This document shows, one piece after another, positions 1 through 34,095 of a stretch of DNA of 64,000 nucleotides; position 1 is the stretch's first letter; every line of letters begins with the position of its first letter. The DNA is from an uncultured Syntrophobacteraceae bacterium. Its GTDB lineage: Bacteria; Desulfobacterota; Binatia; UBA9968. Location of the stretch: the NCBI GenBank assembly GCA_964404195.1, contig CAYOJC010000001.1:57940-121939 (forward strand). The letters run 5' to 3'. A model generated the notes under the pieces. That model saw only the letters and a list, made by a program, of their open reading frames with translations. It was not told where the DNA came from and searched no databases. A program made the translations under genes and the position numbers.

Positions 1-1
1 A

Positions 2-622
2 GCGAAGACGCGCGTGACCGAGGGTCCGCACGGCGAATCGCACGGGTTTTACGGCGATGAAAAAGAGGGGCTCGTCTTCAAAGTCAAATGTGTGACGCAC
101 AGAAAGAATCCGATCCATCAGGGACTGATCTGCAATTATATGGAAGACGGCGGCAAACGCATCACGCGCTCGGCGGTTTTGTGGGGCAAGTTAAAAAGTC
201 TCGGCACGCCCGGCGTGGTCGACGTCCGCTTTCCCGATCCGGGCTGCGGGCGCGAAATCTGCGTCGTCGCCGCCGATATCAAAGAACCGGGGCAGGTGAT
301 GCAGATCGTCGAGACGGTCTGGGGCGTCAACGCCATGGGGCCGAACTGGATCATCGTGGTCGACGCCGACGCCGATCTCGACGACTGGAACGATATTTGG
401 TGGCGCATTTATTCTAGAAGTGAGCCGCACCGCGACGTTTGGATCACGCCGCCGCGCCAGCACGGCGGGCACCAGCCGCTGGTGAAGCACGGCTTCACCT
501 CGCGCATCGCGATCGACGCGACCTCCAAGTTCAAGGGCGTGGAATTTCCCGAAGTGAACGACGTGAGCCGCGAGCTGACGCAGAAAGTCCTGAGACGGTG
601 GTCGGAGTTGGGCCTGGAGTAG
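2..622 (+). CDS. UbiD-family (prFMN-dependent) decarboxylase, C-terminal fragment; the 5' end lies upstream of the window
   Basis: The frame is open from the window edge. The translation aligns with the C-terminal region of the four complete UbiD paralogs in this window (…IVVDADADLDDWNDIWWRIYSRSEP… matches …IVVVDDDIDPTDLNEVIWAIGTRSNP…). Confidence 0.6.
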   Translation, partial: AKTRVTEGPHGESHGFYGDEKEGLVFKVKCVTHRKNPIHQGLICNYMEDGGKRITRSAVLWGKLKSLGTPGVVDVRFPDPGCGREICVVAADIKEPGQVMQIVETVWGVNAMGPNWIIVVDADADLDDWNDIWWRIYSRSEPHRDVWITPPRQHGGHQPLVKHGFTSRIAIDATSKFKGVEFPEVNDVSRELTQKVLRRWSELGLE

Positions 623-624
623 AT

Positions 625-775
625 CAGTGTGCGCGATGAATACTCACCACGAAGGACACGAAGTTGCGGAATCGACAAGAAAATATGATCTCACCACGAA
701 GCCCACGAAGGCCACGAAGGTTTGGGATATGAATAATTTTGAACTTCGTGTCCTTCGTGCCTTCGTGGTGAATCC
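625..775. repeat. REP/MITE-like element built from direct and inverted CACGAAGG/CCTTCGTG repeats
   Basis: caccacgaaggacacgaag … caccacgaagcccacgaaggccacgaagg … cttcgtgtccttcgtgccttcgtggtga. The same family occurs at 5479-5697 and 46630-46760. Confidence 0.5.
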
Positions 776-861
776 TACTTTTCTTATTTTGGTTGTGGCA
801 TTGCCGCGCTGGGCGCTTCGTGGTGAAAAGAACTTGAACCTGAAAAGTGGGAGACAGTCGA

Positions 862-3114
862 ATGGCGCATAAGGTTGTCGGGCGCTCGCTGCCCCGCGTC
901 GAGGGGGCGGCGAAGGTCAGCGGCGCGTTGAGTTACACGGCGGACATTCTTCGGCCCGGCTCTCTCTGGGGCAAAGTTCTGCGCAGCCCGCTGCCCCACG
1001 CGCGCATCCTTAATATAGATACCAGCCGGGCCATGAGCCTCCCCGGCGTGAAGGCGATCGTCACCGCCGCCGACATGAAAACGACGCTCGTCGGCGCGAC
1101 CTTGAGAGACATGCCGGTGATGGCGCGCGACCGCGTGCGCTTCGTCGGCGAGGAGATCGCCGCCGTCGCCGCCGTGGATGCCAACACGGCGGAAGAAGCG
1201 GTTGAATTGATCGACGTCGAATACGAAGATCTGCCGGCGGTTTTCGATCCGCTTGAGGCGATGAAGCCCGAGGCGCCCATCCTGCATCCGGATTACCCGA
1301 CTTATAAAGGACCGAAGACCATGGCGCTGGAACTCAAGAACGTCCAGACGCTCGTGCGCGGCCGGAAGGGCGAGATCGAAAAAGGCTTCGCCGAATCGGA
1401 TTTCATCTTCGAGAAAACTTATCGCACCCAGCTCGTGCACCAGGGCTACATCGAGCCTTACGCCTGCACGGTGGAAGTCGACGATCAGGGGCGCGTCGCC
1501 ATCTGGGTGGCGAACCAGGCGTTCTTCAAGCTCAGGCGCGTGCTGGCGGAATATTTGGAGCTTCCTCCGGAAGATATCACGATCTACCCAAGCAACATGG
1601 GCGGCTCGTTTGGCGCCAAAGATTTTCTGTTCCTGAATCCGGCGGCTTATTATCTCTCGAAAAAAACCGGCCGGCCCGTGCGCTTTGTGAAAAGCTACGG
1701 CGAAGAACTCGGAGCCACCACGCCGCGCCACTCCGCGGTGATCTCTCTCCGTGTCGGTGTAAAAAAGGACGGCCGCCTCTGGGCATGGGACGGAAAGACC
1801 TTCTACAACGGCGGCGCTTACGGCGCGTTCAAGCCCAACCCCAAAGGCTCGATGAGCGGCGCGTACATGGTCGCGGGCTCTTATAATATCCCCAACACGC
1901 GCCTCGAAGGGTATTGCGTTTACACCAATCAAGTCCCGTGCGGCTACTTCCGCGCGCCGGGGGAAGCCCAGACCCTGTTCGCGGTCGAAAGCCATATGGA
2001 CCTAATGGCCGAAGCGCTCGGCATGGATCCGATCGAGTTCCGCCGGCTGAACGCGCTGAAAGAAGGCGACACGCGCGCGACGGGCGAATCGCTGGAAGAT
2101 CCGCACTGCCTCGAAGTTCTCGATCGCGTGGCGAAAATTTCCGGATGGAAAAAGAAGCAAGCCAAAGCATCTGCCGAAAATAAATTAACCGGGCGCGGCG
2201 TGGCGCTCGGCGACCGCCACGTGGGCCACGGCGAGTCGAGCTTCGAATTGCTTCTCGAGCGCGGCGGAACGCTCCGGCTCTTGAGCGGCGTCGGTGATCA
2301 GGGGGTCGGCGCCTACACGATGCACCGCCAGGTCGCGGCCGAGCTGCTCGGAGTCAAGCCGGGCTTGATCGAGATCGAGGTCAGGGACACCTCCAACGCG
2401 CCATACGACCAGGGGATCAAGGGCGCCAGGGGGACGCACGTCGAGGGACAGGCGGTCGCGCGCGCGGCCGGCGCGTTGATCGACAATCTGCGTTCTCTCG
2501 CCGCGTCGCGATGGGGCGTGCCGGTCGAAAAGATTTCCTGGACCGATGGAGCCGCTCTCTTCAAAAACCACGGAAAAAGAAAAAAGCTGAGCTTGAAAGA
2601 ATTGGCGGGCCTTTCGGAAGCGCCGGTCAAGGGATTCGGCGAGTACACGGGACACAAGCCGCACGTCTATTCCTTTCAGGCGATCGTCGTCGACGCGGAG
2701 GTCGATCAGGAGACCGGCGCGGTCGAGTTGCAACACCTCTACTTCGTCTACGATGTCGGCACGATCATCAATCCGCTCAATCACCAGGGGCAGATCGAAG
2801 GCGGCATCGTCCAAGGCCTGGGCTACGCGCTGACCGAAGAGCTGAAAGTCGATGAAGGGCGCGTCACCACGGTGACGCTGGGCGATTACAAAATTCCCAA
2901 CATCGCCGACAATGTGCCGCTCACGACTTCGCTGGTTCAAGCGAAGGTCGGCCCCGGCCCGTTCGGCGCTAAGTCGGTGGCCGAGGCCGGAGTCAGCATC
3001 GTCGCGCCGGCGGTGGCGAACGCGGTCTACAACGCGACCGGCGTGCGGATCACTGAGCTGCCGGTCACCGCGGAAAAAATTATCGAGGGTCTCGCATGCC
3101 GTTCCAAAGTTTGA
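862..3114 (+). CDS. xanthine dehydrogenase/aldehyde oxidase-family molybdopterin-binding large subunit (copy 1)
   Basis: The protein is ~750 aa with an N-terminal a/b-hammerhead (RVEGAAKVSG..YTADI, LWGKVLRSPLPHARI) and the MoCo-domain motifs GGSFG, GYFRAPGE and GQGxxT. The ATG at 862 has a GGGAG RBS; the track start at 847 is a GTG. Confidence 0.85.
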   Translation: MAHKVVGRSLPRVEGAAKVSGALSYTADILRPGSLWGKVLRSPLPHARILNIDTSRAMSLPGVKAIVTAADMKTTLVGATLRDMPVMARDRVRFVGEEIAAVAAVDANTAEEAVELIDVEYEDLPAVFDPLEAMKPEAPILHPDYPTYKGPKTMALELKNVQTLVRGRKGEIEKGFAESDFIFEKTYRTQLVHQGYIEPYACTVEVDDQGRVAIWVANQAFFKLRRVLAEYLELPPEDITIYPSNMGGSFGAKDFLFLNPAAYYLSKKTGRPVRFVKSYGEELGATTPRHSAVISLRVGVKKDGRLWAWDGKTFYNGGAYGAFKPNPKGSMSGAYMVAGSYNIPNTRLEGYCVYTNQVPCGYFRAPGEAQTLFAVESHMDLMAEALGMDPIEFRRLNALKEGDTRATGESLEDPHCLEVLDRVAKISGWKKKQAKASAENKLTGRGVALGDRHVGHGESSFELLLERGGTLRLLSGVGDQGVGAYTMHRQVAAELLGVKPGLIEIEVRDTSNAPYDQGIKGARGTHVEGQAVARAAGALIDNLRSLAASRWGVPVEKISWTDGAALFKNHGKRKKLSLKELAGLSEAPVKGFGEYTGHKPHVYSFQAIVVDAEVDQETGAVELQHLYFVYDVGTIINPLNHQGQIEGGIVQGLGYALTEELKVDEGRVTTVTLGDYKIPNIADNVPLTTSLVQAKVGPGPFGAKSVAEAGVSIVAPAVANAVYNATGVRITELPVTAEKIIEGLACRSKV

Positions 3115-3176
3115 GAGAGTTCGTGCGCGAGTTTCACTTGTCACGACAATGGGACGCAACCCAGGGGGCTTTATGA
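3096..3176 (+). pseudogene. remnant of a UbiD 5' end (MPFQSLREFVREFHL…*) overlapping the XDH copy-1 stop
   Basis: gcatgccgttccaaagtttgagagagt (3092-3118) is 22/27 identical to the true UbiD start at 5749-5775 (gcatgccgttccaaagcctaagagatt; MPFQSLRDYL). Confidence 0.4.
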
Positions 3177-4732
3177 ACTGCTTGCGCATTGCGGCGTCTT
3201 TGTTGAGCGTATTTCTTGCCGTGGGTTTGTCCGAGGGAGCGGAGTCTCCGAGATACGGGGGGCGTTTGGTTTTTGGCCTGGCTAGAGACATCACCGGCCT
3301 GAATCCTTTCGTTCGCACCCGCTCAACCAACAAGTACGTACGGCAGATTGCCTACGAAGCGCTTTTCGACTACGACACAAAGGCTCAGCTCGTTCCGGCG
3401 CTTGCCGACTCCTGGACTGTTTCTCCCGATAGCAAGGTTTACACGATCAGGCTGCGGCGGGGGGTAAAATTTCACAACGGCGAGGAGCTGACCGCCGAAG
3501 ATGTGAAATGGAGCGCCGAATACGCCAAGGACCCCAAGAACGCGGCAACCGGAATCACCTTCTTGGAAAGAGTGCAGGCAGTGAGCGTCAAGGACAAGTA
3601 CACGGTGGAGTTCCTCCTAAAAGAGCCCCAGGCAATCTTTCTTAACCTGTTGGCATCCATGGAGGCCTCCTTCCCCGTTCTTCCCAAGGGGTCGGTGCCG
3701 GCTGCGCAGAGCAATTTGCCCAGTCCCCCTCCCGGGACCGGACCTTTTGAATTCAAAGAATACAAGCCGGCAAGAGAACTAGTCTTTGTGCGCAACAAAA
3801 ACTACTGGCAGAAAGGCCTTCCCTATCTCGACGAGCTGGTGCTCAAACCGGTGGAGGATGAGCAGGTTCGTTTTGCTTCGCTGCGCGCCGGGGACCTGGA
3901 TATGATCGAGCGAACCGCCTACGTATTCGTGAAGAAAATATTAAACAGAGAATACCCGGAGATCGGGGTTACAGAAGCCAAATATGCCGGCTTTCGGCGC
4001 CTGATATTCAACGTCGTGAATCCGCCCTTCAACGATCTCAAGCTGCGTCAGGCCGTGCTTTATGCTCTGGACAAAAAAGGCTACCTCGAAGGGGCCTTCT
4101 GGGGTCTTGGGGAGCCGGCGAACCAGGCGATTCCGACGGAGAGCCCCTGGTACGTCAAGCTGCCGGAGGCCAAGCGGGATTTGGCCAAGGTCAAGGCTCT
4201 TTTAAAGGAATCGAAAGCCGGCCCCGACTTTGAAGTGGAAATCCTGGCCCGGAGAGGGGAAGAGCCCGAGACCCAGATCCTTCGAGAGCAACTGACGACC
4301 GCCGGGATCAAAACCAGGATTGCGCTGCTGGAGAGCGCGGCGCGTGAGGCGCGGACCCGCGCAGGTGATTTTATGATAGTCCTGAGCGGGATGGATGTGC
4401 CCAACGATCCGGGGGACGATTATTCGGTGGAGTATGGCTGTAATCCCGAGGAAGTGTCGGCCAAACGACGAGGCCAGAACCAGGCCGGTTATTGCAATAA
4501 AGAATTCGACCGGCTGATGGCGGAGGCGTCGAAGATCCAGGATACGAAAAAGCGTTATGGGCTTTACGCCAATGCACTTGGGATTCTCAATCAAGAAATT
4601 CCGGCTATCTCCATGGCGTTCGTGCCGCGCTATTTCAGCTATCGACAGAAGGTGCGGGGCTTCAGGACCGACGGAGGCGATCGCTTCAACACGATCACTA
4701 CGGGACTTTCACGGGTTTGGATCGAACCTTAG
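3173..4732 (+). CDS. ABC transporter substrate-binding protein, family 5 (DppA/OppA-like), copy 1
   Basis: Signal peptide MNCLRIAASLLSVFLAVGLSEG, then RYGGRLVFGL…GLNPF…KFHNGEELTAEDV…PPGTGPF. An alternative ATG lies at 3149. It is paralogous to 20310, 25467(-) and 28635. Confidence 0.85.
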   Translation: MNCLRIAASLLSVFLAVGLSEGAESPRYGGRLVFGLARDITGLNPFVRTRSTNKYVRQIAYEALFDYDTKAQLVPALADSWTVSPDSKVYTIRLRRGVKFHNGEELTAEDVKWSAEYAKDPKNAATGITFLERVQAVSVKDKYTVEFLLKEPQAIFLNLLASMEASFPVLPKGSVPAAQSNLPSPPPGTGPFEFKEYKPARELVFVRNKNYWQKGLPYLDELVLKPVEDEQVRFASLRAGDLDMIERTAYVFVKKILNREYPEIGVTEAKYAGFRRLIFNVVNPPFNDLKLRQAVLYALDKKGYLEGAFWGLGEPANQAIPTESPWYVKLPEAKRDLAKVKALLKESKAGPDFEVEILARRGEEPETQILREQLTTAGIKTRIALLESAAREARTRAGDFMIVLSGMDVPNDPGDDYSVEYGCNPEEVSAKRRGQNQAGYCNKEFDRLMAEASKIQDTKKRYGLYANALGILNQEIPAISMAFVPRYFSYRQKVRGFRTDGGDRFNTITTGLSRVWIEP

Positions 4733-4759: not shown

Positions 4760-5479
4760 ATGCCAAAGCCGCCTGACGAATTCGTCGAAGAGCTTTTGCG
4801 CGGGAGGCTACCCCGTCGCGAGGAACGGCCGACTCGAGCGCTGATCGTTCAGGGAAAGCTCAGCAAAGAACAAGTGAAGCTATGGGTCAAGCAGCTTCAC
4901 TATTATCGCGTCAACGTGCCGCGCAAGGAGCTCTATATCCTGGCCAATTGCCCGATCAAAGAGATCCGGATGGAGCGATTGAAAAAGTATCTTGAAGAGG
5001 AGGACGATCGCGTGATGGGCGGGAAAGCCGGACCTCATGCCGAGCTGTGGGCCCAGTTGGGCGAAGGCCTGGGGATAAGCCGCGCGGAGATGGAAGACTT
5101 CGACGCCATGTGCCCGGAATACCGCCTCCTCGTCGACTCATGGGTCAACTACGCGCGCGATCACACTTGGCTGGGAGGCTCGGCCATGAGCTTCGATGAA
5201 GACGGCGGCACGGGGACCTCGGGCGAAGGAATGAACATGGCGCGGGCCTTGTCCAAATTCTACGGCGTTCCCGATTCGGGGTTGGCACATTTCACGCTCC
5301 ATTCCGAGCTTGACATCGAGCACGGCGCGTCGACCCACGACTTGATCCGAAAATACTCCCTTACGGACGAGCAACAGGAGGGCGTTCGCAACGCGGTCCG
5401 CTTCAAAAGAGCCTTCCATACGATGGAGGACCAGTGCATGCGGATCGCTTGCCGAATCGACCCGCAATTATATGCTTAG
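4760..5479 (+). CDS. PqqC-like (cofactor-independent oxygenase, haem-oxygenase-like fold) protein
   Basis: LSKEQVKLWVKQLHYYRVNVPRKELYILANCP and HAELWAQLGEGLGISRAEM align with the PqqC motifs TREQIQGWVANRFYYQ..IPLKDAAI.ANCP and IEAWLRLGEAVGLSRDDL. An AAAGGAGG RBS is present. No pqqA/B/D/E genes are nearby. Confidence 0.7.
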   Translation: MPKPPDEFVEELLRGRLPRREERPTRALIVQGKLSKEQVKLWVKQLHYYRVNVPRKELYILANCPIKEIRMERLKKYLEEEDDRVMGGKAGPHAELWAQLGEGLGISRAEMEDFDAMCPEYRLLVDSWVNYARDHTWLGGSAMSFDEDGGTGTSGEGMNMARALSKFYGVPDSGLAHFTLHSELDIEHGASTHDLIRKYSLTDEQQEGVRNAVRFKRAFHTMEDQCMRIACRIDPQLYA

Positions 5480-5750: not shown

Positions 5751-7184
5751 ATGCCGTTCCAAAGCCTAAGAGATTACCTCAAGAAGGTCGAAGAGCACGG
5801 CGATCTTCTTAAGATCGACGGCGCGTCCCGCGAGGAGGAGATCGGCGCGCTGGCGGAAATCGTCGCGAGCACGGCCAAGCACCCGATGCTGCTCTTTGAC
5901 AACATCAAAGGATACCCCGCGGGATATCGCGTTTCGGCCAGCACGATGGGCGGCGTGCGCCGGATGGCTCTCGGCCTCGGCTTGGACCCGTCGCTCGCCA
6001 ATGTCGAGCTGGTAAAGGCATGGAAAGAGAAGCTCAAGACGTTCAAGCGGATCGAGCCGCGCGAAGTCGCCGACGGTCCGGTGCGGGAAAATGTTTTCTC
6101 CGGCGAAAAAATTGACTTGCTCAAATTCCCCGCGCCGAAGTGGCACGAACGCGACGGCGGCTACTACATCGGCACCGGCTGCTGCGTGATCACGCGCGAC
6201 CCCGACGATGGCTGGGTCAACATGGGCGTCTATCGCGTCGTGGTCCACGATAAGAAAACTCTCGGGATTTTTATCAACCACATCCAGCACGGCCGGCTCA
6301 TCGTCGAGAAGTACTGGTCGCAAGGAAAAAGTTGCCCGGTGATTATCTCTTTCGGACAAGACCCCGCGCTTTTTCTCGCCGCCGCGCAGCGCGAGCCGTG
6401 GGGCGTGGGCGAGCTCGACGTCGCGGGATGGCTTCGCGGCGAGCCGGTGGAAATTCTGAAAGGCGAGAGGACGGGTCTGCCGATTCCCGCGCACGCGGAG
6501 ATCGTCGTCGAAGGAGAGATCCCTCCGATCGAGAAAGAAGCGCGGCCCGAAGGGCCGTTCGGCGAGCGCACGGGTTACTACGCGACCGGGACGAGAAACG
6601 AGCCGGTCGTCCGCGTGTCGTCGCTGATGCACCGCAACGATCCGATCATCCAGGGTGATCCGCCGCTGAAGCCGGTGCCCGGCATGGACCACTTCGGCAT
6701 CCCGCTGCCCGCGGCGGGTGTGTGGTCGGCGTTGGAATCCGCCGGCATTCAAGACATCCGCGGGGTCTGGCTGCACGGCCCGTTCGCGACGGTGATCTCG
6801 CTCAAGCAGCGCTACGAAGGCCACGCGCGCCAGGCGGCGGCGATCGCGCTCGGCGCGCGCGCCACGGTGCACCTCGGAAGATTCGTCATTCTTGTCGACG
6901 ATGATATTGACCCGTCGGATCTCAGCGACGTCTTCTGGGCGGTCACGACGCGCTGCGATCCGGCGGAGCAAACGGAAGTCTTGAAAGGATTTCCGACGAG
7001 CGGCATCAATCCGCGCGTCGCGCCGGCGGACCGTGAAGAGGGACACTTTGTCTCTTCCAAGATGATCATCGACGCGTGCCGGCCGTACCGTTGGATCAAG
7101 GATTTTCCGGCGACGAACGTCATGAGCCCGGAGCTGAAAACGAAAGTAGCGGAGAAGTGGAAGCGATTGCTGGAGCGGCAGTGA
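5751..7184 (+). CDS. UbiD-family decarboxylase (copy 2)
   Basis: 477 aa. The N-terminus MPFQSLRDYL…LLFDNIKGYPAGYR matches the canonical UbiD PALLFENPKGY region, and the full-length architecture fits the family. Confidence 0.85.
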   Translation: MPFQSLRDYLKKVEEHGDLLKIDGASREEEIGALAEIVASTAKHPMLLFDNIKGYPAGYRVSASTMGGVRRMALGLGLDPSLANVELVKAWKEKLKTFKRIEPREVADGPVRENVFSGEKIDLLKFPAPKWHERDGGYYIGTGCCVITRDPDDGWVNMGVYRVVVHDKKTLGIFINHIQHGRLIVEKYWSQGKSCPVIISFGQDPALFLAAAQREPWGVGELDVAGWLRGEPVEILKGERTGLPIPAHAEIVVEGEIPPIEKEARPEGPFGERTGYYATGTRNEPVVRVSSLMHRNDPIIQGDPPLKPVPGMDHFGIPLPAAGVWSALESAGIQDIRGVWLHGPFATVISLKQRYEGHARQAAAIALGARATVHLGRFVILVDDDIDPSDLSDVFWAVTTRCDPAEQTEVLKGFPTSGINPRVAPADREEGHFVSSKMIIDACRPYRWIKDFPATNVMSPELKTKVAEKWKRLLERQ

Positions 7185-7278
7185 GTTTTCCATGCCGGCG
7201 ACCGTGCCGCGCGAGGCATCGCGTCCGGCTTCAAGGACGAATTATACAAACAAGCCCCGTGAGAAGAATGCAAGGCCA

Positions 7279-25466: not shown

Positions 25467-27011
25467 CTACGGCGCGATCCAAACCCGGGAAAAACCCGCC
25501 GTCGTCATGTTGAAGCGGCCGTCCCAGTCGGTTTCGAAGCCGCGCACCTTCTTATGATACGTGTAGTAGCGCGGGATAAACGCCAGCGGGATTTCCGGAA
25601 CTTCTTCGTTGACGATGCGCACCACCTTGGCCCAGACTTCGTAGCGCTTCTTGGGGTCGATGGTCTTCGCCGCCTCCGCCATCAAGCGGTCCACTTCTTT
25701 GTTGCAATAGCCGGACGAATTCTCGCCGCGTTTTTTCGCTTTGACCTCGTCCTCGTTGCAGCTAAGCTCTCCGGGATATTCCATGCCCAGTTCGGTCGGC
25801 ACGTCGCTGCCGCTCAGAATCATCATGAAATCGCCCCTGCTTTCACGCGTCTCGCGCGCGCCTCTTTCCAATATCGTGACTTTGGTTTTTATCCCCGCCG
25901 AGGACAACAGGCTCTGAATCACTTGCAGTTCCTCGCCTTCGGTCTGCAAGCCCATCAGCTCGACTTCGAGGTTGGGCGAAACGCCCGCTTCCTTGAGGAG
26001 CGCCTTGACCTTTTCCAGGTCGCGCTTCACCTCGGGAAGTTTCATGTGCCAGGGACTCTCCTTCGGAACCAACTGGTCCGCGGGCTCGCCCAGTCCCCAG
26101 AACGCGCCTTCGATAAATTGTTTTTTGTCGAGCGCGTAGCGCACCGCCTGGCGCAGCTTTAAATTATTAAACGGCGGATCCACGACGTTAAACAGCATGC
26201 GGCGAAAGCCGGCGTACTTAGCCTCGGTTGCCCTGAGATCGGGATATTCCCCTTTGAGAACGCTCCGCACGGAACCGTAAGCCGTTCTTTCAACCATATC
26301 GACGTCGCCGGCGCGCACCGAGGTGAAGCGGACCGTCTCGTCGCGAATCGGGCGCAGGACCAGCTCGTCGAGATAGGGAAGCCCCTTATGCCAGTAATCC
26401 GCGTGGCGCATGAAGACGATCTCCCGGTCGGGTTTGTAGTCTTTGAACGCGAACGGGCCCGTTCCCGGCGGCATCGTTTGCGCGCGCGGATCGGTAATCG
26501 ACCCTTCAGGCACGATGGGAAACGGACGGATCGAACCCAGCGTGGCCAAAAAAGCCGAATCGACTTCCTTCATTACGAACTCGACGGTGTACTTGTCCTT
26601 GACGTTGACCGCGCCGACGTTTCGGAGCGGAACCAGACCGGTGGGGGCGTTCTTCGGATCCATGGCGTAGGCGACGCTCCATTTCACGTCCGCCGCGGTC
26701 ATCTCCTTGCCGTTGTGGAATTTGACCCCGCGCCGCAAGTTGAAGGTATAAAGTTTTCCGTCGGGCGAAACTTTCCACGACGTGGCGAGCGCGGGGACCA
26801 TCTTGCTGTCCTTGTCGAAGTCGATCAGCGGCTCGTAAACGATGCCGCGCACGGCGAAATTCGTGGATGTGGTGCGCTGGAAGGGATTGACCGCCGTAAT
26901 GTCGTTGCGCAGTCCTAAAATAAGACGGCCGCCACGCCGCGGAGTTTCCGCGGCGTGCGCGGAGGCGGTGAAAAGTAAAAGCGTCAAACCGGCGACGATG
27001 ATGTGGATCAT
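25467..27011 (-). CDS. ABC transporter substrate-binding protein, family 5 (DppA-like), copy 3
   Basis: MIHIIVAGLTLLLFTASAHAAETPRRGGRLILGL. GGAG RBS. The track ORF is extended to 27428. Confidence 0.8.
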   Translation of the reverse strand: MIHIIVAGLTLLLFTASAHAAETPRRGGRLILGLRNDITAVNPFQRTTSTNFAVRGIVYEPLIDFDKDSKMVPALATSWKVSPDGKLYTFNLRRGVKFHNGKEMTAADVKWSVAYAMDPKNAPTGLVPLRNVGAVNVKDKYTVEFVMKEVDSAFLATLGSIRPFPIVPEGSITDPRAQTMPPGTGPFAFKDYKPDREIVFMRHADYWHKGLPYLDELVLRPIRDETVRFTSVRAGDVDMVERTAYGSVRSVLKGEYPDLRATEAKYAGFRRMLFNVVDPPFNNLKLRQAVRYALDKKQFIEGAFWGLGEPADQLVPKESPWHMKLPEVKRDLEKVKALLKEAGVSPNLEVELMGLQTEGEELQVIQSLLSSAGIKTKVTILERGARETRESRGDFMMILSGSDVPTELGMEYPGELSCNEDEVKAKKRGENSSGYCNKEVDRLMAEAAKTIDPKKRYEVWAKVVRIVNEEVPEIPLAFIPRYYTYHKKVRGFETDWDGRFNMTTAGFSRVWIAP

Positions 27012-27150: not shown

Positions 27151-27154
27151 GTTG

Positions 27155-28258
27155 TCAGACCGCGCGAGCGGCTTCCTTCTGCGTGCACCAGGGAATGGCG
27201 TGCCCCATGCGGCAGCGCGCCGACGCCTTGGCCAAAGCTTCCTCGAACACGGCATGAATTCTCCGATCTTCGTCCTCGTATTCGATCTGCGCGCCGCCCT
27301 GCTTGACGCTTTTGTCGGTCGGCGCGTCCTCGTGATTGAACATCGAGAAACGGTAGCGCCAGGTGTTCCAGCGAAGCGCCAGGTAGCGCGCCGGGTCGGC
27401 GCTGGAGTTGAAGTGCTGGTGGAACCATTGGTTGGGCGGCACGACGACGCTGCCCGGCTTCCAGTCGACGCGCATCCGCTCTTTGCCTTCCGGCCAGAGC
27501 AGCGAGTAGCCCTGGCCGGTGAGGATGATGACGTGCGCGCCGGGGCCGTGGCGATGCGCTTTCTTGTAGGTGCCGACGCTGAACTCCGATATGTGCGACA
27601 TCATGATGTTGCCGGCGAGGTCGAACATGACGTGGCGGTTGCCGCCTGCCCCGCGTGCCGGCTTGTCGTAAAGCGGTACCGTGTAGACGTCGGGAACGAA
27701 GTTGACGGAGAGCTTGTCGCCCCAGAGCTGACCGACGCCGCTGAAGTAATCGTTTTCTTCCTCCGGATTGAAGCGGTCGAGAAAAGCGTAATCCGCGTTG
27801 AAGACGAAATCGACGTTATGAAACAAGCTCAGCATGAAAGGCGCGTTGGTCACGGCGAAGTAACGCACCGGCGCGTTGCCCTGGCCGTTGAAGTGTTGGT
27901 ACGAGGCGTTCAAAGGGATGGCAAAGAGGCTGCCGGGATGCCATTCGAAGGTGTGTTTCCTCCCGTCTTTTTGCCAGATGGTGGTGGCCCCGTGGCCTTC
28001 CACGATGAAAACCATCTCTTCATAGAGGTGCCTCTGCGGCTTGAGCGACTTCCCCGGCGGAATGACGCACACGTAGCCGTCGTTGGTCCCTCCCGTGCCG
28101 TCGAGATTAATGAACGCTCCCAGGCCGCCCTTGAGATCCCAGGGCGCGACTTCGACTTTGCGCAGGTCCTCGATGAAAAATCCCCGGTGGATGGGAATTT
28201 TCTGCGCGATCTGCCAGGTCTCGTACGTATCGATCATCTGATCGTCGGTGTATTTCAT
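27155..28258 (-). CDS. bicupin-fold protein (paralog family A, copy 3)
   Basis: MKYTDDQMIDTYETWQIAQKIPIHRGFF… is ~80% identical to copy 1. GGAGG RBS 7 nt upstream of the ATG at 28258. Confidence 0.65.
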   Translation of the reverse strand: MKYTDDQMIDTYETWQIAQKIPIHRGFFIEDLRKVEVAPWDLKGGLGAFINLDGTGGTNDGYVCVIPPGKSLKPQRHLYEEMVFIVEGHGATTIWQKDGRKHTFEWHPGSLFAIPLNASYQHFNGQGNAPVRYFAVTNAPFMLSLFHNVDFVFNADYAFLDRFNPEEENDYFSGVGQLWGDKLSVNFVPDVYTVPLYDKPARGAGGNRHVMFDLAGNIMMSHISEFSVGTYKKAHRHGPGAHVIILTGQGYSLLWPEGKERMRVDWKPGSVVVPPNQWFHQHFNSSADPARYLALRWNTWRYRFSMFNHEDAPTDKSVKQGGAQIEYEDEDRRIHAVFEEALAKASARCRMGHAIPWCTQKEAARAV

Positions 28259-28476: not shown

Positions 28477-28634
28477 CTGCCAAACCGGTCCACGATGACT
28501 GTGCGGGAAGCCCTCGTCGGACGCCGTAAGATGACCTGCGTCTTCCGCCTTGGTCCTCTTGCACCGATTTCACCCTGAGTATAAAAGATATGCCTACTGA
28601 ACGTCCTGACACCGGCAAACAAAGGGGGGTCCCA

Positions 28635-30179
28635 ATGAAACTCTTCTGTCTGTTGATTTCGCTGATCTGTTCGGCGGTTCCCTCATGGAGCGGGGCGCAG
28701 GAGAAGCCCCGATCCGGAGGCACGCTCAACGTGGGGATTCACGCCGACCTGTACGGACTGAACCCGTTCGTGCGCATGCGCTCGATCGACCGCAACATTC
28801 GGGCGCTGGTCTATGAGAGCCTGGTCATGATCGACGGCAAAGGCGAGGTGAAGCCGTTTCTGGCCGAGTCGTGGAAAATCTCTCCCGACGGCAAGGAATA
28901 TACTTTCGTTCTCCGCAAAGGAGTGAAATTTCACAACGGCGAGGAGATGACCGCCGAAGATATCAAGTGGGCGGTGGAATACGCCAAGGACCCGCAGCAC
29001 GGCGCGACGGCCAAGCCCAACCTCGACGACGTGGATGCGGTCCGCGTGGTGGACAAATATACCGTTCGGTTCGTCATGAAGCGGCCGGTGGTTTCGTTTC
29101 TCCCGGGGCTCAGCGAATTGGGCGTGCTCTTTGTACTGCCCAAGAATTCCATCCCCACGGGACAGACCAAAGTCCAGGCGATGCCGCCGGGCACCGGCCC
29201 GTTCGCCTTCAAAGAATGGCGCGCCGGCTCGCACGCGACCTTCGAGCGCCACAAGGACTACTGGCAAAAAGGCTATCCTTATCTCGACCGGGTCGTGCTG
29301 AAGCCGGTGCCGGACGCCTCGGCGCGGCTCGCGGCGCTCCGGGCCGGCGATCTCCATATCATCACACGCCTTCCTTCGCAGTGGGTGGCCAAGGTCCAGA
29401 AGGGCGAAATGCCCGAGGTCTCGCTGGTGGCGGCCAAGTACGCCGGCATGAGAGAGCTGTATTTAAATACGGTCCGGCCGCCGTTCGACAATCCCAAGAT
29501 CCGCCAGGCCGTCGTTTATGCCGTGGACAAGCAAAAACTTCTCGAAGGCGCGTATTGGGGCCAGGGAGAAGCGGCGGAAGAGCGCTTTTACAAGGGATCG
29601 CCGTGGAACTTCGGCTTCCCGGAAAGAAAGCGCGACCTGGCAAAATCCAAGGCGCTTCTTAAGGAGGCCGGCTACAAAGGCGAAAAAATCGTCTTCGTTT
29701 CGCGCCAGGGTCAGGATGAAGTCGCGTTCATAGTCCCTATGTTGCAGGAGGCCGGTCTGAATGTGGTGGTGGAGACGCTCGAAGCCGGCACGTATCGGAC
29801 CCGCTCCCGCACCGGCGACTATGACATGAGCCCAGGCGGCGGCGACCTGCCCGCCGATCCCGCGCAGATCGCGGTCGAGTTCATGTGCGACGAGGAGTCG
29901 GTCAAGCTCAAAGCCCGCGATAACAATCGCACGGGCTACTGCAACAAGCAGTTGGACGCGCTGGTGAACCAAGCGGACGGCACGCTCGATCCGAAAAAAC
30001 GAAAAGAGATTTACAAAAAGGCGTTCGAAATTCTCTACAACGAGACGCCGGAAGTATTTCTCGCGTTCGAGCACCGTTATTTCGGCGTCCATCCGACCGT
30101 GCGCGGCTTCGTAACGGATAATAACGAATCCCTGGACACCGCAGAGGGAGGAATCTTCAGGGTTTGGCTGACGAAATAG
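28635..30179 (+). CDS. ABC transporter substrate-binding protein, family 5 (DppA-like), copy 4
   Basis: MKLFCLLISLICSAVPSWSGAQEKPRSGGTLNVGIHADLYGLNPF. AAGGGGGG RBS. The more divergent paralog; it is the one directly upstream of the permease genes. Confidence 0.8.
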   Translation: MKLFCLLISLICSAVPSWSGAQEKPRSGGTLNVGIHADLYGLNPFVRMRSIDRNIRALVYESLVMIDGKGEVKPFLAESWKISPDGKEYTFVLRKGVKFHNGEEMTAEDIKWAVEYAKDPQHGATAKPNLDDVDAVRVVDKYTVRFVMKRPVVSFLPGLSELGVLFVLPKNSIPTGQTKVQAMPPGTGPFAFKEWRAGSHATFERHKDYWQKGYPYLDRVVLKPVPDASARLAALRAGDLHIITRLPSQWVAKVQKGEMPEVSLVAAKYAGMRELYLNTVRPPFDNPKIRQAVVYAVDKQKLLEGAYWGQGEAAEERFYKGSPWNFGFPERKRDLAKSKALLKEAGYKGEKIVFVSRQGQDEVAFIVPMLQEAGLNVVVETLEAGTYRTRSRTGDYDMSPGGGDLPADPAQIAVEFMCDEESVKLKARDNNRTGYCNKQLDALVNQADGTLDPKKRKEIYKKAFEILYNETPEVFLAFEHRYFGVHPTVRGFVTDNNESLDTAEGGIFRVWLTK

Positions 30180-30254: not shown

Positions 30255-31202
30255 GTGATTCTCTACATTCTCAGACGACTCCTTCAACTGATCCCGGTTC
30301 TTTTTATCGCCTCGTTCATTGTTTTTTTTATTATTCATCTGATCCCGGGCGACCCGGTCGAGATCATGCTCGGCGAGGAGCGCTACGACCGGGCGCAGTA
30401 CGAGATTCTGCGTAAAAAAATGAATCTCGACCAGCCGATATACGTCCAGTACCTGACTTGGCTCGGACGCGTCGCGCAAGGAGACCTGGGACAATCGCTG
30501 CGCACGCAGCGGCCCGTCCTCGACACCGTCGTCGAGCGCTTTCCCGCCACGCTTTATCTCGCCCTCGCCTCTCTCATCATAGGCATCGTGATCGCGATCC
30601 CCGCCGGAACACTGGCGGCCGTGAAGCAAAACACTGTCTACGATTACGGCGCCATGGGCTTTGCGCTGTTCGGCATCGCCGTGCCTAATTTTTTTTTCGC
30701 GCTCTTGTTGATCCTGGGCTTCGGCCTTTACCTGGGCTGGTTTCCGACGCTCGGCTACATCGACCCCTCGGCCAACTTCCCGCGCTTTCTCTGGCATCTC
30801 ACGCTGCCGGCCCTGGTGTTGGGAACCGATCTGGCTTCAACGGTGACCCGCTACGTGCGCGCGGAAATGCTCGAGCAGCTCCGGCTCGACTACGTGCGCA
30901 CGGCCAGAGCCAAGGGCGTGCCGCGCCGGCTGGTCATCTATAAACACACGCTGAAGAATTCTTTGATCTCGGCCACGACCGTCATCGGTCTTCAGGTGGG
31001 CCGGCTGCTCGGTGGCTCTACGATCATTGAGACGGTCTTTGCCTGGCCCGGCGTCGCGCGCCTGGTCCTGGAGGCGGTTTACTCGCGCGACTACCCGCTC
31101 CTGCAGGGCGCGGTCTTGTTTCTGGCGTTCACGTACGTGGGCGTGAATCTGGTCGTCGACGTGCTATACAAATGGCTGGACCCGCGCATCTCGCTTAAAT
31201 GA
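30255..31202 (+). CDS. ABC transporter permease (DppB/OppB-like)
   Basis: MILYILRRLLQLIPVLF (GTG start) and multi-TM composition. The stop/start overlaps the next gene. Confidence 0.85.
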   Translation: MILYILRRLLQLIPVLFIASFIVFFIIHLIPGDPVEIMLGEERYDRAQYEILRKKMNLDQPIYVQYLTWLGRVAQGDLGQSLRTQRPVLDTVVERFPATLYLALASLIIGIVIAIPAGTLAAVKQNTVYDYGAMGFALFGIAVPNFFFALLLILGFGLYLGWFPTLGYIDPSANFPRFLWHLTLPALVLGTDLASTVTRYVRAEMLEQLRLDYVRTARAKGVPRRLVIYKHTLKNSLISATTVIGLQVGRLLGGSTIIETVFAWPGVARLVLEAVYSRDYPLLQGAVLFLAFTYVGVNLVVDVLYKWLDPRISLK

Positions 31203-32110
31203 TTACGGCAGAAAGAGAAAAACTTCCCGGGGAACTCCCCGCCGCGACCGAGCTCGGCGCGCTCGGGCAGCGCGTGGGCGCGTCGCTGGTCATTCTCTTG
31301 CGCAATCGGCTCGCAGCTCTGGGGCTGTTCCTCGTCCTCTTGGTTTTGCTCACCGCGCTGTTTGCGCCCTACTTGATAACCCACGATCCGTTCCAAATGA
31401 ATCTGCCCGACCGCCTCAAAGGTTCCTCCGCCGAGCACCTGCTGGGAACCGACATCTACGGCCGGGATATATTAACCCGCCTTATCCTCGGCTCCCGGAT
31501 CGCCATGCGCGTCGCTTTCGGCGCGGTTCTTCTCGCGGTTCTGATCGGGGTCCCCGTAGGCGCCGTCTCGGCGTACGCGGGGGGCTGGACGGACGCCGTG
31601 GTGATGAGGTTCGTCGACGCATTTCTCGCCTTTCCCGGAAGGCTTCTTGCTATTGCGTTGGTGGCCGCCATGGGACCGAGCTTTCTAACCTTTTATTTGG
31701 CGATCGGCTTGACTTCGATACCCGGATATATCCGCGTGGTGCGCGCCACCGTCCTATCGCAAAAAGAGCGGGAATACGTCGAAGCGGCGCGCATGACGGG
31801 CGAGTTCGAATTCCGGATTCTTTTCTTCCAGATACTTCCCAACTGCATCGCGCCGATTCTGGTGCTTGTCAGTCTCGATTTCGCGCACGCCATACTCGTG
31901 GAGTCCTCGCTGAGTTTTCTAGGATTGGGCTTTCCGCCTCCAGCGCCAAGCTGGGGCCTGATGCTCAGCGAAGCGCGCGGGTATATGGAACTCGCGCCTC
32001 ACGTTGCCATTTTCCCGGGTCTGGTGATCTCGCTCGCCATCCTGGGCTTCAATCTTCTCGGCGATGGACTGCGGGATATTTTCGACCCGCGCCAATACGA
32101 ACGGCAATGA
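31199..32110 (+). CDS. ABC transporter permease (DppC/OppC-like)
   Basis: An EAA-like loop and TM-rich sequence. The ATGA overlap indicates translational coupling. Confidence 0.85.
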   Translation: MITAEREKLPGELPAATELGALGQRVGASLVILLRNRLAALGLFLVLLVLLTALFAPYLITHDPFQMNLPDRLKGSSAEHLLGTDIYGRDILTRLILGSRIAMRVAFGAVLLAVLIGVPVGAVSAYAGGWTDAVVMRFVDAFLAFPGRLLAIALVAAMGPSFLTFYLAIGLTSIPGYIRVVRATVLSQKEREYVEAARMTGEFEFRILFFQILPNCIAPILVLVSLDFAHAILVESSLSFLGLGFPPPAPSWGLMLSEARGYMELAPHVAIFPGLVISLAILGFNLLGDGLRDIFDPRQYERQ

Positions 32111-33078
32111 GCGATCCACTGCTCCAGGTCAGAGACCTCACGGTCCAGTTTCAGATAGGGCGCGGCACTCTGATCGCCGTGGATCATGTTTCCTTCACCA
32201 TCCGGGAAAAAGAAACTCTGGGCATCGTCGGCGAAACCGGTTGCGGCAAGAGCGCAACCGCGCTCGCCATCCTTCGCCTCATCGCCTCGCCGCCCGGCGA
32301 GATCGCCGGCGGGCAGATTCTTTTCGAAGGCGAAGATCTGTTGAAGAAGAGCGAGAGAGAGATGGAGAAAATCCGCGGCCGTCGGATATCCATGATCTTT
32401 CAGGAGCCCATGACCTCGCTCAATCCCTCTTTTACCGTCGGCGAGCAGATTGCCGAATGCTATCGGATTCACCTGGGCCACTCCAACAAGGTCGCGCTCG
32501 ACTGGTCCCAGCATATTCTCAGCTCGGTGCGCGTTCCCTCTCCCCGGACCGTCATGGCGCGCTACCCTCATGAGCTCTCCGGCGGCATGCGCCAGCGGGT
32601 GATGATCGCGATGGCGCTCGCCTGCCAGCCCAAGCTGCTGATCGCCGACGAGCCGACCACCGCCCTGGACGTGACCATCCAGGCGCAGATTTTAGAATTG
32701 CTGGAAGAGCTGCAGGAGAAAATGGGCATGGCGCTGCTCTTCATCTCTCATAACCTGGGCGTCGTCGCCCGCCTGTGCGACCGGATCGGCGTCATGTATG
32801 CGGGCTCGCTCGTGGAGCTGGCCGACAAGCGGGAACTGTTCACTTCGCCGCTTCACCCTTACACGATCGGACTCTTGCACGCGTTTCCGCGCCCCGAACG
32901 GCGCGACGAACCGCTGCGCGCGATTCCCGGCAACGTTTGCAATCTGCTCGACGCGCCGAGCGGCTGCCGGTTTCATCCGCGCTGCTTCAAGGCGAGAGAG
33001 ATCTGCAAGGCCGACGTTCCTCCCTTTGAGAAAAAATCCGACAACCACAGGGTCGCCTGTTACTTTCCCGGTGAATGA
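32107..33078 (+). CDS. ABC transporter ATP-binding protein (DppD-like)
   Basis: Walker A GETGCGKS, signature LSGGMRQR, Walker [13 protein letters not shown], and an oligopeptide-type C-terminal extension. Confidence 0.85.
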
Positions 33079-34049
33079 TGCCGCTTCTCGAAGTCAAAGG
33101 CCTGACGAAGTACTACGACCTCAGCGGCGATCCGCTGAGCCGTCTGTTCCGCGGCACCAAGCTGCTCAAAGCGGTCGATCATATCAACTTCTCGATCGAC
33201 GAAGGCGAGACCTTCGGGCTGGTCGGCGAAAGCGGCTGCGGAAAATCGACCACCGCGCGCCTTATCACGCGCTTGATCGAGACGACCGAAGGAGAAGTGA
33301 TTTTTCAGAACCGAAACATTCTTAGCCTGCCGAAGAAGCGAGTCCGGGAAATCAGGAGCGATATCCAGATGGTCTTTCAGGACCCATTCGCGTCGCTGAA
33401 TCCGCGCATGAAGGTCCTGGAGATCGTCGGCCGGCCGGTGACGCTTTATCAGGGACTCAAGGGGAAAAAGAAACTCGACACGGTCGCCGAGCTTCTAGGA
33501 CTGGTCGGACTCCAGCCGGAGGCCATGCACCGCTATCCGCACGAATTCAGCGGCGGGCAGCGCCAGCGGATCGGCATCGCGCGCGCTCTGGCGGCGAACC
33601 CAAAGCTGATCATCGCCGACGAGCCGGTATCTTCTTTGGACGTTTCGGTCCAGGCGCAAGTTTTGAATCTGTTCAAGAAGCTGCAAAAGGAACTGAAGCT
33701 CACGATGCTCTTCATCTCGCACGACCTCAACGTCGTCGAGTACCTCGCCGACACCGTCGCCGTGATGTACGCGGGAAAGATCATGGAGATCGCGCCCGTG
33801 CAGGAGATTTTTCAATTCCCCAAGCACCCGTACACTCAGGGCCTGATGGCCTCCAACCTGACTCCCGATTCCTTCGAAGTCAAAAAGACGCCCACGCTGA
33901 GGGGCGAAGTCCTTCTGCCGCTGAATCCTCCTCCCGGCTGCCGCCTCGAGCCGCGCTGCCCGATTCGCGTCGAGCGCTGCAAGACCATCGAGCCTCCGCT
34001 CGAACAAAAACGCCCCGGCCACTCTGCCGCGTGTCACGAAGTGACGTGA
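33075..34049 (+). CDS. ABC transporter ATP-binding protein (DppF-like)
   Basis: GESGCGKST, FSGGQRQR, LIIADEPVSSLD. Confidence 0.85.
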   Translation: MMPLLEVKGLTKYYDLSGDPLSRLFRGTKLLKAVDHINFSIDEGETFGLVGESGCGKSTTARLITRLIETTEGEVIFQNRNILSLPKKRVREIRSDIQMVFQDPFASLNPRMKVLEIVGRPVTLYQGLKGKKKLDTVAELLGLVGLQPEAMHRYPHEFSGGQRQRIGIARALAANPKLIIADEPVSSLDVSVQAQVLNLFKKLQKELKLTMLFISHDLNVVEYLADTVAVMYAGKIMEIAPVQEIFQFPKHPYTQGLMASNLTPDSFEVKKTPTLRGEVLLPLNPPPGCRLEPRCPIRVERCKTIEPPLEQKRPGHSAACHEVT

Positions 34050-34095
34050 CGACGGGGTTAAAAAGTAGAATGTCCCTTTTTTCCCGCTTCTTTTG

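Follow-up and report, generated by a model that had tools for sequence, protein, structure and literature searches.

The first 34,050 nucleotides of a 64,000-nt stretch from an uncultured Syntrophobacteraceae bacterium of the Binatia lineage (contig CAYOJC010000001.1, positions 57,940 to 121,939; hereafter the window) carry an island of 25 genes, as judged from the open reading frame (ORF) listing and Pfam/NCBIfam scans. UbiD-family decarboxylases, molybdenum (Mo)-binding large subunits of the xanthine dehydrogenase (XDH) family, bicupins and secreted substrate-binding proteins (SBPs) recur in it side by side. In our reading, to which we assign a probability of roughly 60%, the island encodes peripheral (“upper”) catabolic steps for several related carboxylated aromatics, most likely N-heteroaromatic or hydroxy-aromatic acids. 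The original prediction, made from the bare sequence, had already suggested a multi-substrate hydroxylation and decarboxylation system for such acids. This remains the best reading and is strengthened by the similarity of three UbiDs to the phenazine-1-carboxylate decarboxylase PhdA and by the gentisate/salicylate-dioxygenase class of the bicupins, and family searches support the enzyme classes named at that time.

Layout of the array

Starting from the left edge, the genes follow in the order UbiD0, XDH1, SBP5_1, the PqqC-like gene, UbiD1, XDH2, Cup1, NMT1_1, UbiD2 and the ornithine cyclodeaminase (OCD) homolog (minus strand), continue with NMT1_2, NMT1_3, NMT1_4, UbiD3, Cup2, SBP5_2, Cup3 and XDH3, and end with SBP5_3 and Cup4 (both minus strand), SBP5_4 and the two permeases and two ATPases of a Dpp/Opp-type ATP-binding cassette (ABC) importer (Table 1). 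Most genes are thus co-directional as described before, with three of the 25 on the minus strand, and the reported overlaps of stop and start codons are real, comprising five ATGA junctions (9528, 10586, 31199, 32107, 33075) and one TGATG junction (16430). The Pfam and NCBIfam searches also confirmed three XDH-family Mo large subunits, four bicupins, one OCD homolog, one ABC importer and eight periplasmic binding proteins of two families (four SBP_bac_5, four NMT1/SsuA-like). Instead of the five UbiDs claimed, there are four, one of them incomplete at the window edge; searching the 64 kb by tblastn with the proteins of the cluster gave no fifth copy, and a 458-aa plus-strand ORF at 13014-14390 is merely the antisense frame of the OCD gene. 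The suggested module of XDH, binding protein, oxygenase and UbiD is exact at 847-7184 and returns at 7192-13038 with the two middle genes swapped, but does not extend to XDH3.

Prenylated flavin-dependent decarboxylases

UbiD1-3 contain all three UbiD domains (UbiD_N, UbiD, UbiD_C; Pfam), and the only NCBIfam model they pass is the general subfamily model TIGR00148 (275, 269 and 305 bits; cutoff 245). Compared with solved UbiD structures, UbiD1 matches 7PDA with 431 bits and the next best with 168 bits; 7PDA is the phenazine-1-carboxylate decarboxylase PhdA, the substrates of which are phenazine-1-carboxylate and 2,3-dimethylquinoxaline-5-carboxylate (PMC10850782). Identity to PhdA amounts to 45% for UbiD1 (478 aligned positions), 38% for UbiD2 and 39% for UbiD3, and drops to 21% for UbiD0, which forms a separate clade with 27-31% identity to UbiD1-3. 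Among all UbiD paralogs, protein identity ranges from 27 to 46%, with UbiD2 and UbiD3 as the closest pair (46%). The UbiD0 fragment is 98% identical to a full-length 458-aa ortholog in a related contig (L006), which also passes solely TIGR00148 (295 bits vs 245). Phenolic-acid decarboxylases fit poorly: the VdcC model gives 254-278 bits (cutoff 650), and AroY-type protocatechuate decarboxylases reach about 148 bits vs 431 for PhdA. All four UbiDs keep the motifs N-x-G-x-YR (read as NMGVYR, NLGTYR and NFGSYR) and EG(P/I)xGE (EGPFGE, EGIFGE, EGPFGE and EGPHGE). We take N-x-G-x-Y-R to bind the metal and the prenylated flavin mononucleotide (prFMN), and E-G-P-x-G-E/D to be the catalytic acid motif.

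Orphan large subunits of the xanthine dehydrogenase family

The three Mo subunits show the full large-subunit architecture and keep GGSFGxK, PRH and the Glu of the C-terminal VAEAG/AAEHA; we assume the usual meaning of these motifs, including that this Glu is the catalytic one. Protein identity among the paralogs is 55-62% (XDH1 to XDH2 62%, to XDH3 55%), and in a neighbour-joining tree they represent three orthologous subgroups of one clade. Their best NCBIfam model is HcrA (TIGR03194) with 462-495 bits (XDH1: 495) against a cutoff of 995, i.e. they reach about half the cutoff of equivalog models and lie outside HcrA. They also lie outside CoxL, the large subunit of aerobic CO dehydrogenase (270-282 bits vs 991), although JGI names some homologs CoxL. 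CoxL has the active-site loop motif AYxCSFR. The alignment of XDH1-3 shows no loop of this type, and the conserved loop GYFRAPGE/GYMRASGE presumably occupies the CoxL-equivalent position in this alignment, which itself contains no CoxL sequence.

Throughout this clade, an adjacent Fe-S subunit gene is missing. When the window was scanned in six frames for the Fe-S motifs CxxGxCGxC and CRCTGY, no match appeared, and all 19 distinct XDH1-3 clade members of the tree are without an Fe-S neighbour in the surrounding 6 kb; such a neighbour does exist for more distant XDH genes (in the homologous loci L035, L044, L053 and L054). Likewise, no fused Fe-S domain occurs among the listed close XDH1 homologs, which consist of the three large-subunit domains only. 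One orphan large subunit with 65% identity to XDH1 lies in L091 (ENA ERZ25039531 contig_33283, 1-22343) next to an Amidohydro_2 protein, a 2-oxoglutarate-Fe oxygenase, a bicupin, a two-subunit thiamine pyrophosphate (TPP) enzyme, Rieske alpha and beta subunits and a TctCBA transporter, a context that resembles the quinoxaline part of lumichrome catabolism.

Bicupins and further oxygenase candidates

Cup2 shares 77% protein identity with Cup4 and 40% with Cup3, and has the invariant H-x-H...H motif of the bicupin alignment. The Cup3 family carries an invariant 3-His cupin motif and has gentisate and salicylate 1,2-dioxygenases as best structural neighbours, so that fold and motif fit for this family, while Cup2-4 give no match to the gentisate 1,2-dioxygenase (GDO) model TIGR02272 (cutoff 442). 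Cup1, the start of which overlaps the XDH2 stop (ATGA), is a more distant relative with 111 bits for MabB and 68 bits for GDO, both far under the NCBIfam cutoffs (442 for GDO), and a PDB match to GDO 3bu7 (2.7e-26). A further bicupin located upstream of the array in relatives reaches 323 bits on TIGR02272. These similarities assign the bicupins to the class of gentisate/salicylate 1,2-dioxygenases.

The PqqC-like oxygenase of the original prediction is present as a PqqC/Haem_oxygenas_2-like protein, but it is not a true PqqC, as it scores 76 bits on TIGR02111 (cutoff 240). In an alignment to 3hml, R50, H84, H154, R157, Y175 and R179 are replaced or missing: H84 is exchanged for Glu, the H154 position for Ser, R157 for Gly and Y175 for His, and R179 stands opposite a gap. 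Presumably, H84, H154, R157, Y175 and R179 bind pyrroloquinoline quinone (PQQ) in PqqC; since most of them are not kept, we ruled out a true PqqC and a role in PQQ catabolism or salvage. Other pqq genes are not present. The protein is probably an O2-dependent oxidase and may be CADD-like; its orthologs are 71-90% identical, which is too alike to show which His, Glu or Asp residues matter. A function as prFMN maturase was also ruled out, since PhdC, the known maturase, belongs to the HpaC-like flavin reductases (PMC13040415). The OCD homolog has delta1-pyrroline-2-carboxylate reductase 6t3e as best PDB match (1e-25), reaches no NCBIfam equivalog and is a candidate enzyme of the imine reductase or cyclodeaminase type.

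Binding proteins and importer

All seven N-termini that were read from the binding proteins are signal-peptide-like (SBP5_4 read from one codon upstream of Met), and the N-terminus of NMT1_2 follows the same pattern. The family-5 proteins, of which SBP5_4 and SBP5_1 share 46% identity, resemble peptide, glutathione, opine and nickel binders without reaching an equivalog, and the NMT1-like proteins are remote relatives of the SsuA family. A family-5 binding protein, two permeases and two oligo_HPY ATPases in one operon make up the Dpp/Opp-type importer. NMT1_3 is interrupted by a single-base deletion within 15650-15670, whereas L089 has an intact ortholog that shares 89% identity with it across the last 257 aa; the gene is either a pseudogene or contains a sequencing error.

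Conservation among Binatia and upstream extension

Homologous loci and contigs are referred to by L-numbers. The closest relatives of UbiD1 are found in metagenome-assembled genomes (MAGs) of Candidatus Binatia with 93% and 89% identity (one genome per GTDB species), which makes a soil bacterium of the Binatia type the most likely source of the window, and the same array of gene families recurs in at least 10 independent contigs with a density far beyond chance. Within 51 loci of at least 12 kb around UbiD1 homologs, two or more UbiDs were found in 27, a bicupin in 26, an XDH in 15 and an NMT1 protein in 12. UbiD0-3, XDH1-3, Cup1, Cup3, Cup4 and the PqqC-like gene each have their own ortholog in related contigs, where the gene order is shuffled, and collinear blocks with 79-90% nucleotide identity in three independent MAG contigs span the junctions between paralogs. 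The paralog pairs of the island itself are 60-80% identical at the DNA level. At this divergence, we consider the paralogs to be old duplicates kept side by side, and therefore they probably differ in substrate specificity.

The array does not end at the left border of the window. As the UbiD0 frame is open from base 2, the window edge cuts the array, and L089 and L006 can be aligned with its first 626 nt at about 90%. In L089 and JGI contig 3300056388 (XDH1 protein identity 88%), the array begins with a GntR/FCD regulator about 9-10 kb further upstream, followed in the same direction by a 328-aa hypothetical protein, a glyoxalase/VOC protein, a 333-aa hypothetical protein, a luciferase-like monooxygenase, the gentisate-1,2-dioxygenase-like bicupin, three NMT1 proteins and UbiD0. 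This block is also present in L006, L009 and L090 up to the ends of their sequences. More distant Binatia genomes have a compact core of GntR, hypothetical protein, monooxygenase, sometimes a bicupin, UbiD0, XDH1, UbiD1 and Cup1. Complete Binatia genomes with the core array include OZ244621.1 and the 6.17-Mb contig of ERZ28763718. Consequently, positions 1-34,050 would represent the downstream three quarters of an island of about 44 kb.

This also changes the view on regulation. With a coding share of 94% and a biggest gap of 373 nt, no transcription-factor gene fits into the visible part, and to this extent the array was correctly described as regulator-free. Nevertheless, this description is an artefact of the window edge, since the syntenic relatives head the array with the GntR/FCD gene. 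Neither Rfam at gathering thresholds nor a tRNA search gave a match anywhere in the window, so no riboswitch explains the regulation. Scans for sigma-70 promoters and terminators gave counts near the shuffled expectation, and a search of the intergenic gaps for a shared GntR-type operator revealed no convincing common palindrome, but turned up the hairpin elements described below.

The two hypothetical proteins that head the array (L089 95-1081 and 1471-2472; about 330 aa each) are paralogs conserved in Binatia contigs, and neither Pfam nor NCBIfam matches them, even at E = 1. Some relatives contain damaged copies, namely UbiD0 split into two frames (L010 5936-7314) and XDH2 truncated to 325 aa (L089 17531-18508), which suggests ongoing paralog decay or indel errors in long-read MAGs. 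When positions 1-25,000 were compared with the PLSDB plasmids by megablast, nothing but 44 nt of Deinococcus XDH genes matched, hence the array is not a known plasmid island. An exact-match search with the UbiD1 protein gave solely 2-kb Logan contigs. We found no description of it in literature on Binatia with UbiD or xanthine dehydrogenase, or on UbiD-XDH-cupin clusters.

Proposed pathway and alternative explanations

The family assignments, the conserved catalytic motifs, the synteny and orthology and the missing partner genes are shown by the data; from them we infer the following direction, order of steps and substrate class. Secreted binding proteins would capture the substrates, with the four family-5 proteins feeding the single Dpp/Opp-type importer and the four NMT1/SsuA-like proteins needing a permease encoded elsewhere. 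In the cytoplasm, the three Mo subunits would hydroxylate ring carbons that are poor in electrons, or oxidise aldehyde groups of the ring, and pass the electrons in trans to Fe-S/FAD subunits encoded outside the island. Ring carboxyl groups could then be stripped by the four UbiDs (three PhdA-like, one of the other clade) using prFMN from a UbiX encoded elsewhere, and the resulting ortho-hydroxy-carboxy rings might be opened with O2 by the bicupins. The PqqC/CADD-like protein may add an O2-dependent oxidation and the OCD-like enzyme an NAD(P)-dependent cyclic-imine step, and the GntR/FCD regulator at the upstream end, as seen in the relatives, probably controls the array. N-heteroaromatic acids are favoured because of the PhdA kinship, the trio of XDH, TPP enzyme and Rieske oxygenase in L091 and the precedent of a lumazine Mo hydroxylase together with a UbiD; homocyclic hydroxy-aromatic acids are still in play, since the bicupins are of the gentisate type.

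A number of observations weigh against this reading. None of the enzymes and binding proteins of the island reaches an equivalog-level NCBIfam score. Pfam calls on ORFs of at least 100 aa in the 64 kb revealed no UbiX-family flavoprotein, which was not seen in the syntenic loci of relatives either, and no maleylpyruvate isomerase or hydrolase, amidase or CoA ligase; without lower-pathway genes, the island cannot be a complete route. Also lacking are PhdC-like and LpdD-like genes and any [2Fe-2S] or FAD subunit gene for the three Mo subunits (all within the 64 kb), as well as a cognate permease for the NMT1-like proteins in the island. Because UbiDs can also work in reverse, the direction stays unproven. 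Moreover, the top NCBIfam models belong to the anaerobic phenol pathway: phenylphosphate carboxylase beta (PpcB) for UbiD1 and UbiD2 and 4-hydroxybenzoyl-CoA reductase alpha (HcrA) for XDH1-3, with 1rm6_A as best PDB match of XDH1 (1.7e-96). Taken at face value, this would point to an O2-independent phenol-type route with the UbiDs as carboxylases (phenylphosphate carboxylase) and the XDHs as reductive dehydroxylases (4-hydroxybenzoyl-CoA reductase). We hold such a route to be very improbable, as the scores are only about half the equivalog cutoffs, phenylphosphate synthase, CoA ligase and HcrB/HcrC are missing, and many enzyme types are O2-dependent, including the bicupins, the PqqC/CADD-like protein and the luciferase-like monooxygenase upstream in relatives. 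Finally, XDH-family enzymes can be aldehyde oxidoreductases, which would speak for homocyclic substrates, and the similarity of the XDHs to aldehyde oxidoreductases (PaoC, D. gigas AOR) equals that to quinoline oxidoreductase. An island for homocyclic substrates, namely phenolic or polycarboxylic acids derived from lignin or humic matter (hydroxybenzoates, hydroxy-isophthalates, aromatic aldehydes), in which the XDHs oxidise aromatic aldehydes to acids, the UbiDs decarboxylate these and a gentisate-type cleavage follows, is unlikely but far from negligible. In its favour, all five bicupins (including the upstream one of the relatives) are of the gentisate/salicylate class, and the characterised substrates of this class in the hit tables (gentisate, salicylate, 5-aminosalicylate, 5-nitrosalicylate) are homocyclic. 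GntR/FCD regulators commonly sense carboxylates. On the other hand, UbiD1-3 group with PhdA and not with the phenolic-acid decarboxylases, a close XDH relative (L091) lies in a quinoxaline-type gene context, and OCD-like and PqqC/CADD-like proteins are typical of nitrogen-containing substrates.

There are two further explanations. The island could serve the biosynthesis or tailoring of a secondary metabolite together with the non-ribosomal peptide synthetase (NRPS) genes at 50-59 kb, for which speak the position of the NRPS modules 16 kb downstream and the existence of biosynthetic UbiD homologs (TtnD; BagN/FevL are among the NCBIfam models matched). This is hardly credible, as an IS91-type transposase, a tyrosine recombinase and unrelated metabolic genes separate the island from the NRPS genes, the syntenic relatives have no NRPS within 10 kb of the array, and eight secreted binding proteins plus an importer indicate uptake. 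Chance scatter of unrelated genes or a chimeric assembly of repeats, which the original prediction had named as the cases that would overturn it, can be dismissed for the island as a whole. One 76-nt repeat of 99% identity (10490-10565, 14353-14428) and the frameshift in NMT1_3 would fit an artefact. However, most enzyme paralogs have their own orthologs in related Binatia contigs, which excludes both cases; the other paralog pairs are just 60-80% identical at the DNA level, the collinear blocks cross the junctions, and the subgroups of the XDH tree are clear.

Compared with our preferred reading of peripheral steps for N-heteroaromatic or hydroxy-aromatic acids, a bolder version is a long shot. 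According to this version, the XDH1-3 clade would work without dedicated Fe-S/FAD subunits, by an unconventional electron route or a redox-neutral hydroxyl transfer, and would be coupled to the prFMN decarboxylases in an iterated “hydroxylate, decarboxylate, cleave” machine, with which uncultured Binatia strip polycarboxylated N-heteroaromatics (phenazine, pterin, flavin or pyrogenic debris) by an undescribed pathway. If Mo subunits truly work without their own partners, the view of how this enzyme family operates would need revising. Apart from this, prFMN decarboxylases and Mo hydroxylases are wanted as biocatalysts, and the island supplies four uncharacterised UbiDs, three of them from the little-explored PhdA branch, three orphan Mo subunits and a large, well-conserved bicupin family without a characterised member. 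The eight binding proteins offer a possible ligand-based route to the substrates, and Binatia, a widespread uncultured soil lineage, would be assigned a concrete role in carbon turnover.

Feature coordinates

Table 1. Genes and sequence elements of the island, with positions in the window and the assignments on which the text relies.
Feature	Position	Strand	Assignment and evidence
UbiD0	2..622	+	3' part of UbiD-family decarboxylase, cut by window edge; Pfam UbiD and UbiD_C
XDH1	847..3114	+	XDH-family molybdopterin-binding large subunit; Pfam Ald_Xan_dh_C, MoCoBD_1 and MoCoBD_2
SBP5_1	3173..4732	+	secreted family-5 (Dpp/Opp/Nik-type) SBP; Pfam SBP_bac_5 2e-84; no NCBIfam equivalog
PqqC/CADD-like protein	4760..5479	+	heme-oxygenase fold; Pfam Haem_oxygenas_2, TENA_THI-4
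UbiD1	5751..7184	+	PhdA-like prFMN decarboxylase; three UbiD Pfam domains; PDB 7PDA 4e-128
XDH2	7192..9531 (real start probably 7279)	+	second Mo large subunit; Pfam; orthologs in L005 and JGI 3300056388
Cup1	9528..10589	+	bicupin, distant gentisate/5-aminosalicylate 1,2-dioxygenase relative; Pfam Cupin_2 twice
NMT1_1	10586..11572	+	secreted NMT1/SsuA-like SBP; Pfam NMT1_2/NMT1; ATGA overlap with Cup1
UbiD2	11596..13038	+	PhdA-like prFMN decarboxylase; Pfam; EGIFGE motif; orthologs in L006 and L007
OCD homolog	13053..14246	-	OCD/mu-crystallin homolog; Pfam OCD_Mu_crystall 1.8e-34, 119.6 bits vs cutoff 24
Cup1 3'-end copy	14353..14428	+	76 nt, 99% identical to 10490-10565; repeat search, tblastn of Cup1 C-terminus
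NMT1_2	14436..15431	+	secreted NMT1/SsuA-like SBP; Pfam; SsuA_fam 70 bits vs cutoff 164
NMT1_3	15421..16430	+	NMT1-like SBP; 1-nt deletion near 15660, homology switches frame
NMT1_4	16430..17434	+	secreted NMT1/SsuA-like SBP; Pfam; SsuA_fam below cutoff; TGATG overlap with NMT1_3
UbiD3	17466..18896	+	PhdA-like prFMN decarboxylase; Pfam; TIGR00148 305 bits vs cutoff 245
REP-like hairpin element	18930..19005; more copies 20212-20271, ~27051-27140	.	intergenic gaps of the island
Cup2	19094..20194	+	bicupin of the conserved Cup2/3/4 family; Pfam Cupin_2
SBP5_2	20310..21860	+	secreted family-5 SBP; Pfam; closest PDB relatives peptide/GsiB/AgaA/DppA-type
Cup3	21899..23026	+	bicupin; predicted 3-His metal site in C-terminal barrel; gentisate/salicylate-dioxygenase-like fold
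XDH3	23141..25390	+	third Mo large subunit; Pfam; orthologs L006 94%, L007 77%, L090 76%
SBP5_3	25467..27011	-	secreted family-5 SBP; Pfam; signal-peptide-like N-terminus
Cup4	27155..28258	-	bicupin, Cup2 paralog; Pfam Cupin_2
SBP5_4	28590..30179 (alternative start 28635)	+	family-5 SBP heading the importer; Pfam SBP_bac_5 6e-85
Dpp/Opp-type ABC importer	30255..34049	+	Pfam BPD_transp_1, OppC_N, ABC_tran, oligo_HPY; ATGA at all three junctions
Importer permeases	30255-31202, 31199-32110	+	
Importer ATPases	32107-33078, 33075-34049	+	

Rearrangement traces and flanking genes

The island has evidently been remodelled by gain, loss and inversion of modules. The copy of the Cup1 3' end forms a direct repeat in front of NMT1_2, and because the NMT1_2 ortholog directly follows Cup1 in relatives, NMT1_1-UbiD2-OCD looks like an insertion here; the repeat is probably either the scar of this insertion or a local assembly join. 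In addition, SBP5_3-Cup4 is an inverted copy of Cup2-SBP5_2 with 71-78% nucleotide identity. The hairpins, which are similar to repetitive extragenic palindromic (REP) elements and have no Rfam match, consist of the arms TTCGACAAGCTCAG / CTGAGC.TGTCGAA, and the arm 14-mer occurs nine times in the window, where 0.54 occurrences would be expected. Folding energies are -40 and -43 kcal/mol for the first two copies (z about -5.4 and -5.8), and the third is no better than its shuffles (z -1.0).

Right after the importer, positions 34096-38239 encode on the minus strand a DUF429 protein, a 315-aa protein without family match, an IS91-family transposase (Y2_Tnp and Zn_Tnp_IS91, 36212-37387) and a tyrosine recombinase (37403-38239). 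This stretch looks like a mobile-element boundary of the island. It is followed at 38715-49183 by genes for a DUF2459 protein, a PEMT/ICMT-like methyltransferase, two alpha/beta hydrolases, a TauE exporter, a 593-aa TPP enzyme (PRK08327-like), an M20 peptidase, a glyoxalase, a TAXI-TRAP binding protein and a threonine-synthase-like pyridoxal phosphate enzyme with an N-terminal zinc ribbon. The NRPS genes (50375-59525) encode a 1,695-aa protein (AMP-binding, PP-binding, condensation, AMP-binding, PP-binding) and two stand-alone AMP-binding plus PP-binding proteins, and appear unrelated to the island.

Comparison with known systems

An XDH-family hydroxylase and a UbiD are combined in one heteroaromatic-acid pathway by the hmf cluster for furfural and hydroxymethylfurfural (HMF) in Cupriavidus basilensis, with the furoyl-CoA dehydrogenase HmfABC and the decarboxylase/UbiX pair HmfFG. 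In contrast to the island, hmf encodes all three XDH subunits, a CoA ligase and UbiX (HmfG), each in a single copy. The 6h6v/6h6x chains, which we take to be HmfF, reach about 140 bits in the ranked PDB list compared to 431 for PhdA. With respect to the gentisate, salicylate and 5-aminosalicylate 1,2-dioxygenases (bicupins with 3-His Fe(II)), the Cup scores stay far under the cutoffs (Cup1 68 vs 442, Cup2-4 none), the 3-His site of Cup3 lies in the C-terminal barrel, and the island has no maleylpyruvate-processing genes.

The closest solved relative by far is PhdA of Mycolicibacterium fortuitum (7PDA), to which UbiD1-3 are full-length homologs with the catalytic motifs kept. Unlike the phd operon, the island has neither a UbiX (PhdB) nor a maturase of the PhdC type nearby, PhdC belonging to the HpaC-like flavin-reductase family (PMC13040415); instead, it has three paralogs and a fourth UbiD clade among Mo hydroxylases, bicupins and binding proteins. 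As identity to PhdA is only 38-45%, its substrate specificity is not transferable. In the lumazine/pterin degradation of Cupriavidus sp. LA-1, which uses LuDH, a DHL isomerase and a xanthine-8-carboxylate decarboxylase with UbiX, a Mo hydroxylase of the xanthine oxidoreductase family is likewise paired with a UbiD-family decarboxylase on an N-heterocycle (PMC12391406). LuDH, however, has its own [2Fe-2S] and FAD subunits and is accompanied by UbiX and an amidohydrolase-type isomerase, none of which are found in the island, while the island has multiple paralogs and bicupins. Streptomyces clusters with only the Mo-binding subunit are mentioned in the same study (PMC12391406).

Lumichrome catabolism in Nocardioides simplex (LumK/L, LumJ, LumA-D) comprises heterocycle decarboxylation, xanthine oxidase-type hydroxylation and oxygenolytic ring opening (PMC12746152). 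In line with this, the 65%-identical XDH1 relative in L091 adjoins a split TPP enzyme and a Rieske dioxygenase. The lumichrome decarboxylase is TPP-dependent, though, its xanthine oxidase is a single 140-kDa polypeptide, and the ring is opened by Rieske and extradiol enzymes, whereas the island has UbiDs, orphan XDH large subunits and bicupins instead. Overall, the enzyme classes and the logic of hydroxylation, decarboxylation and cleavage are already known; unusual are the degree of conserved paralogy, the consistently orphan Mo subunits, the many binding proteins and the uncultured host lineage.

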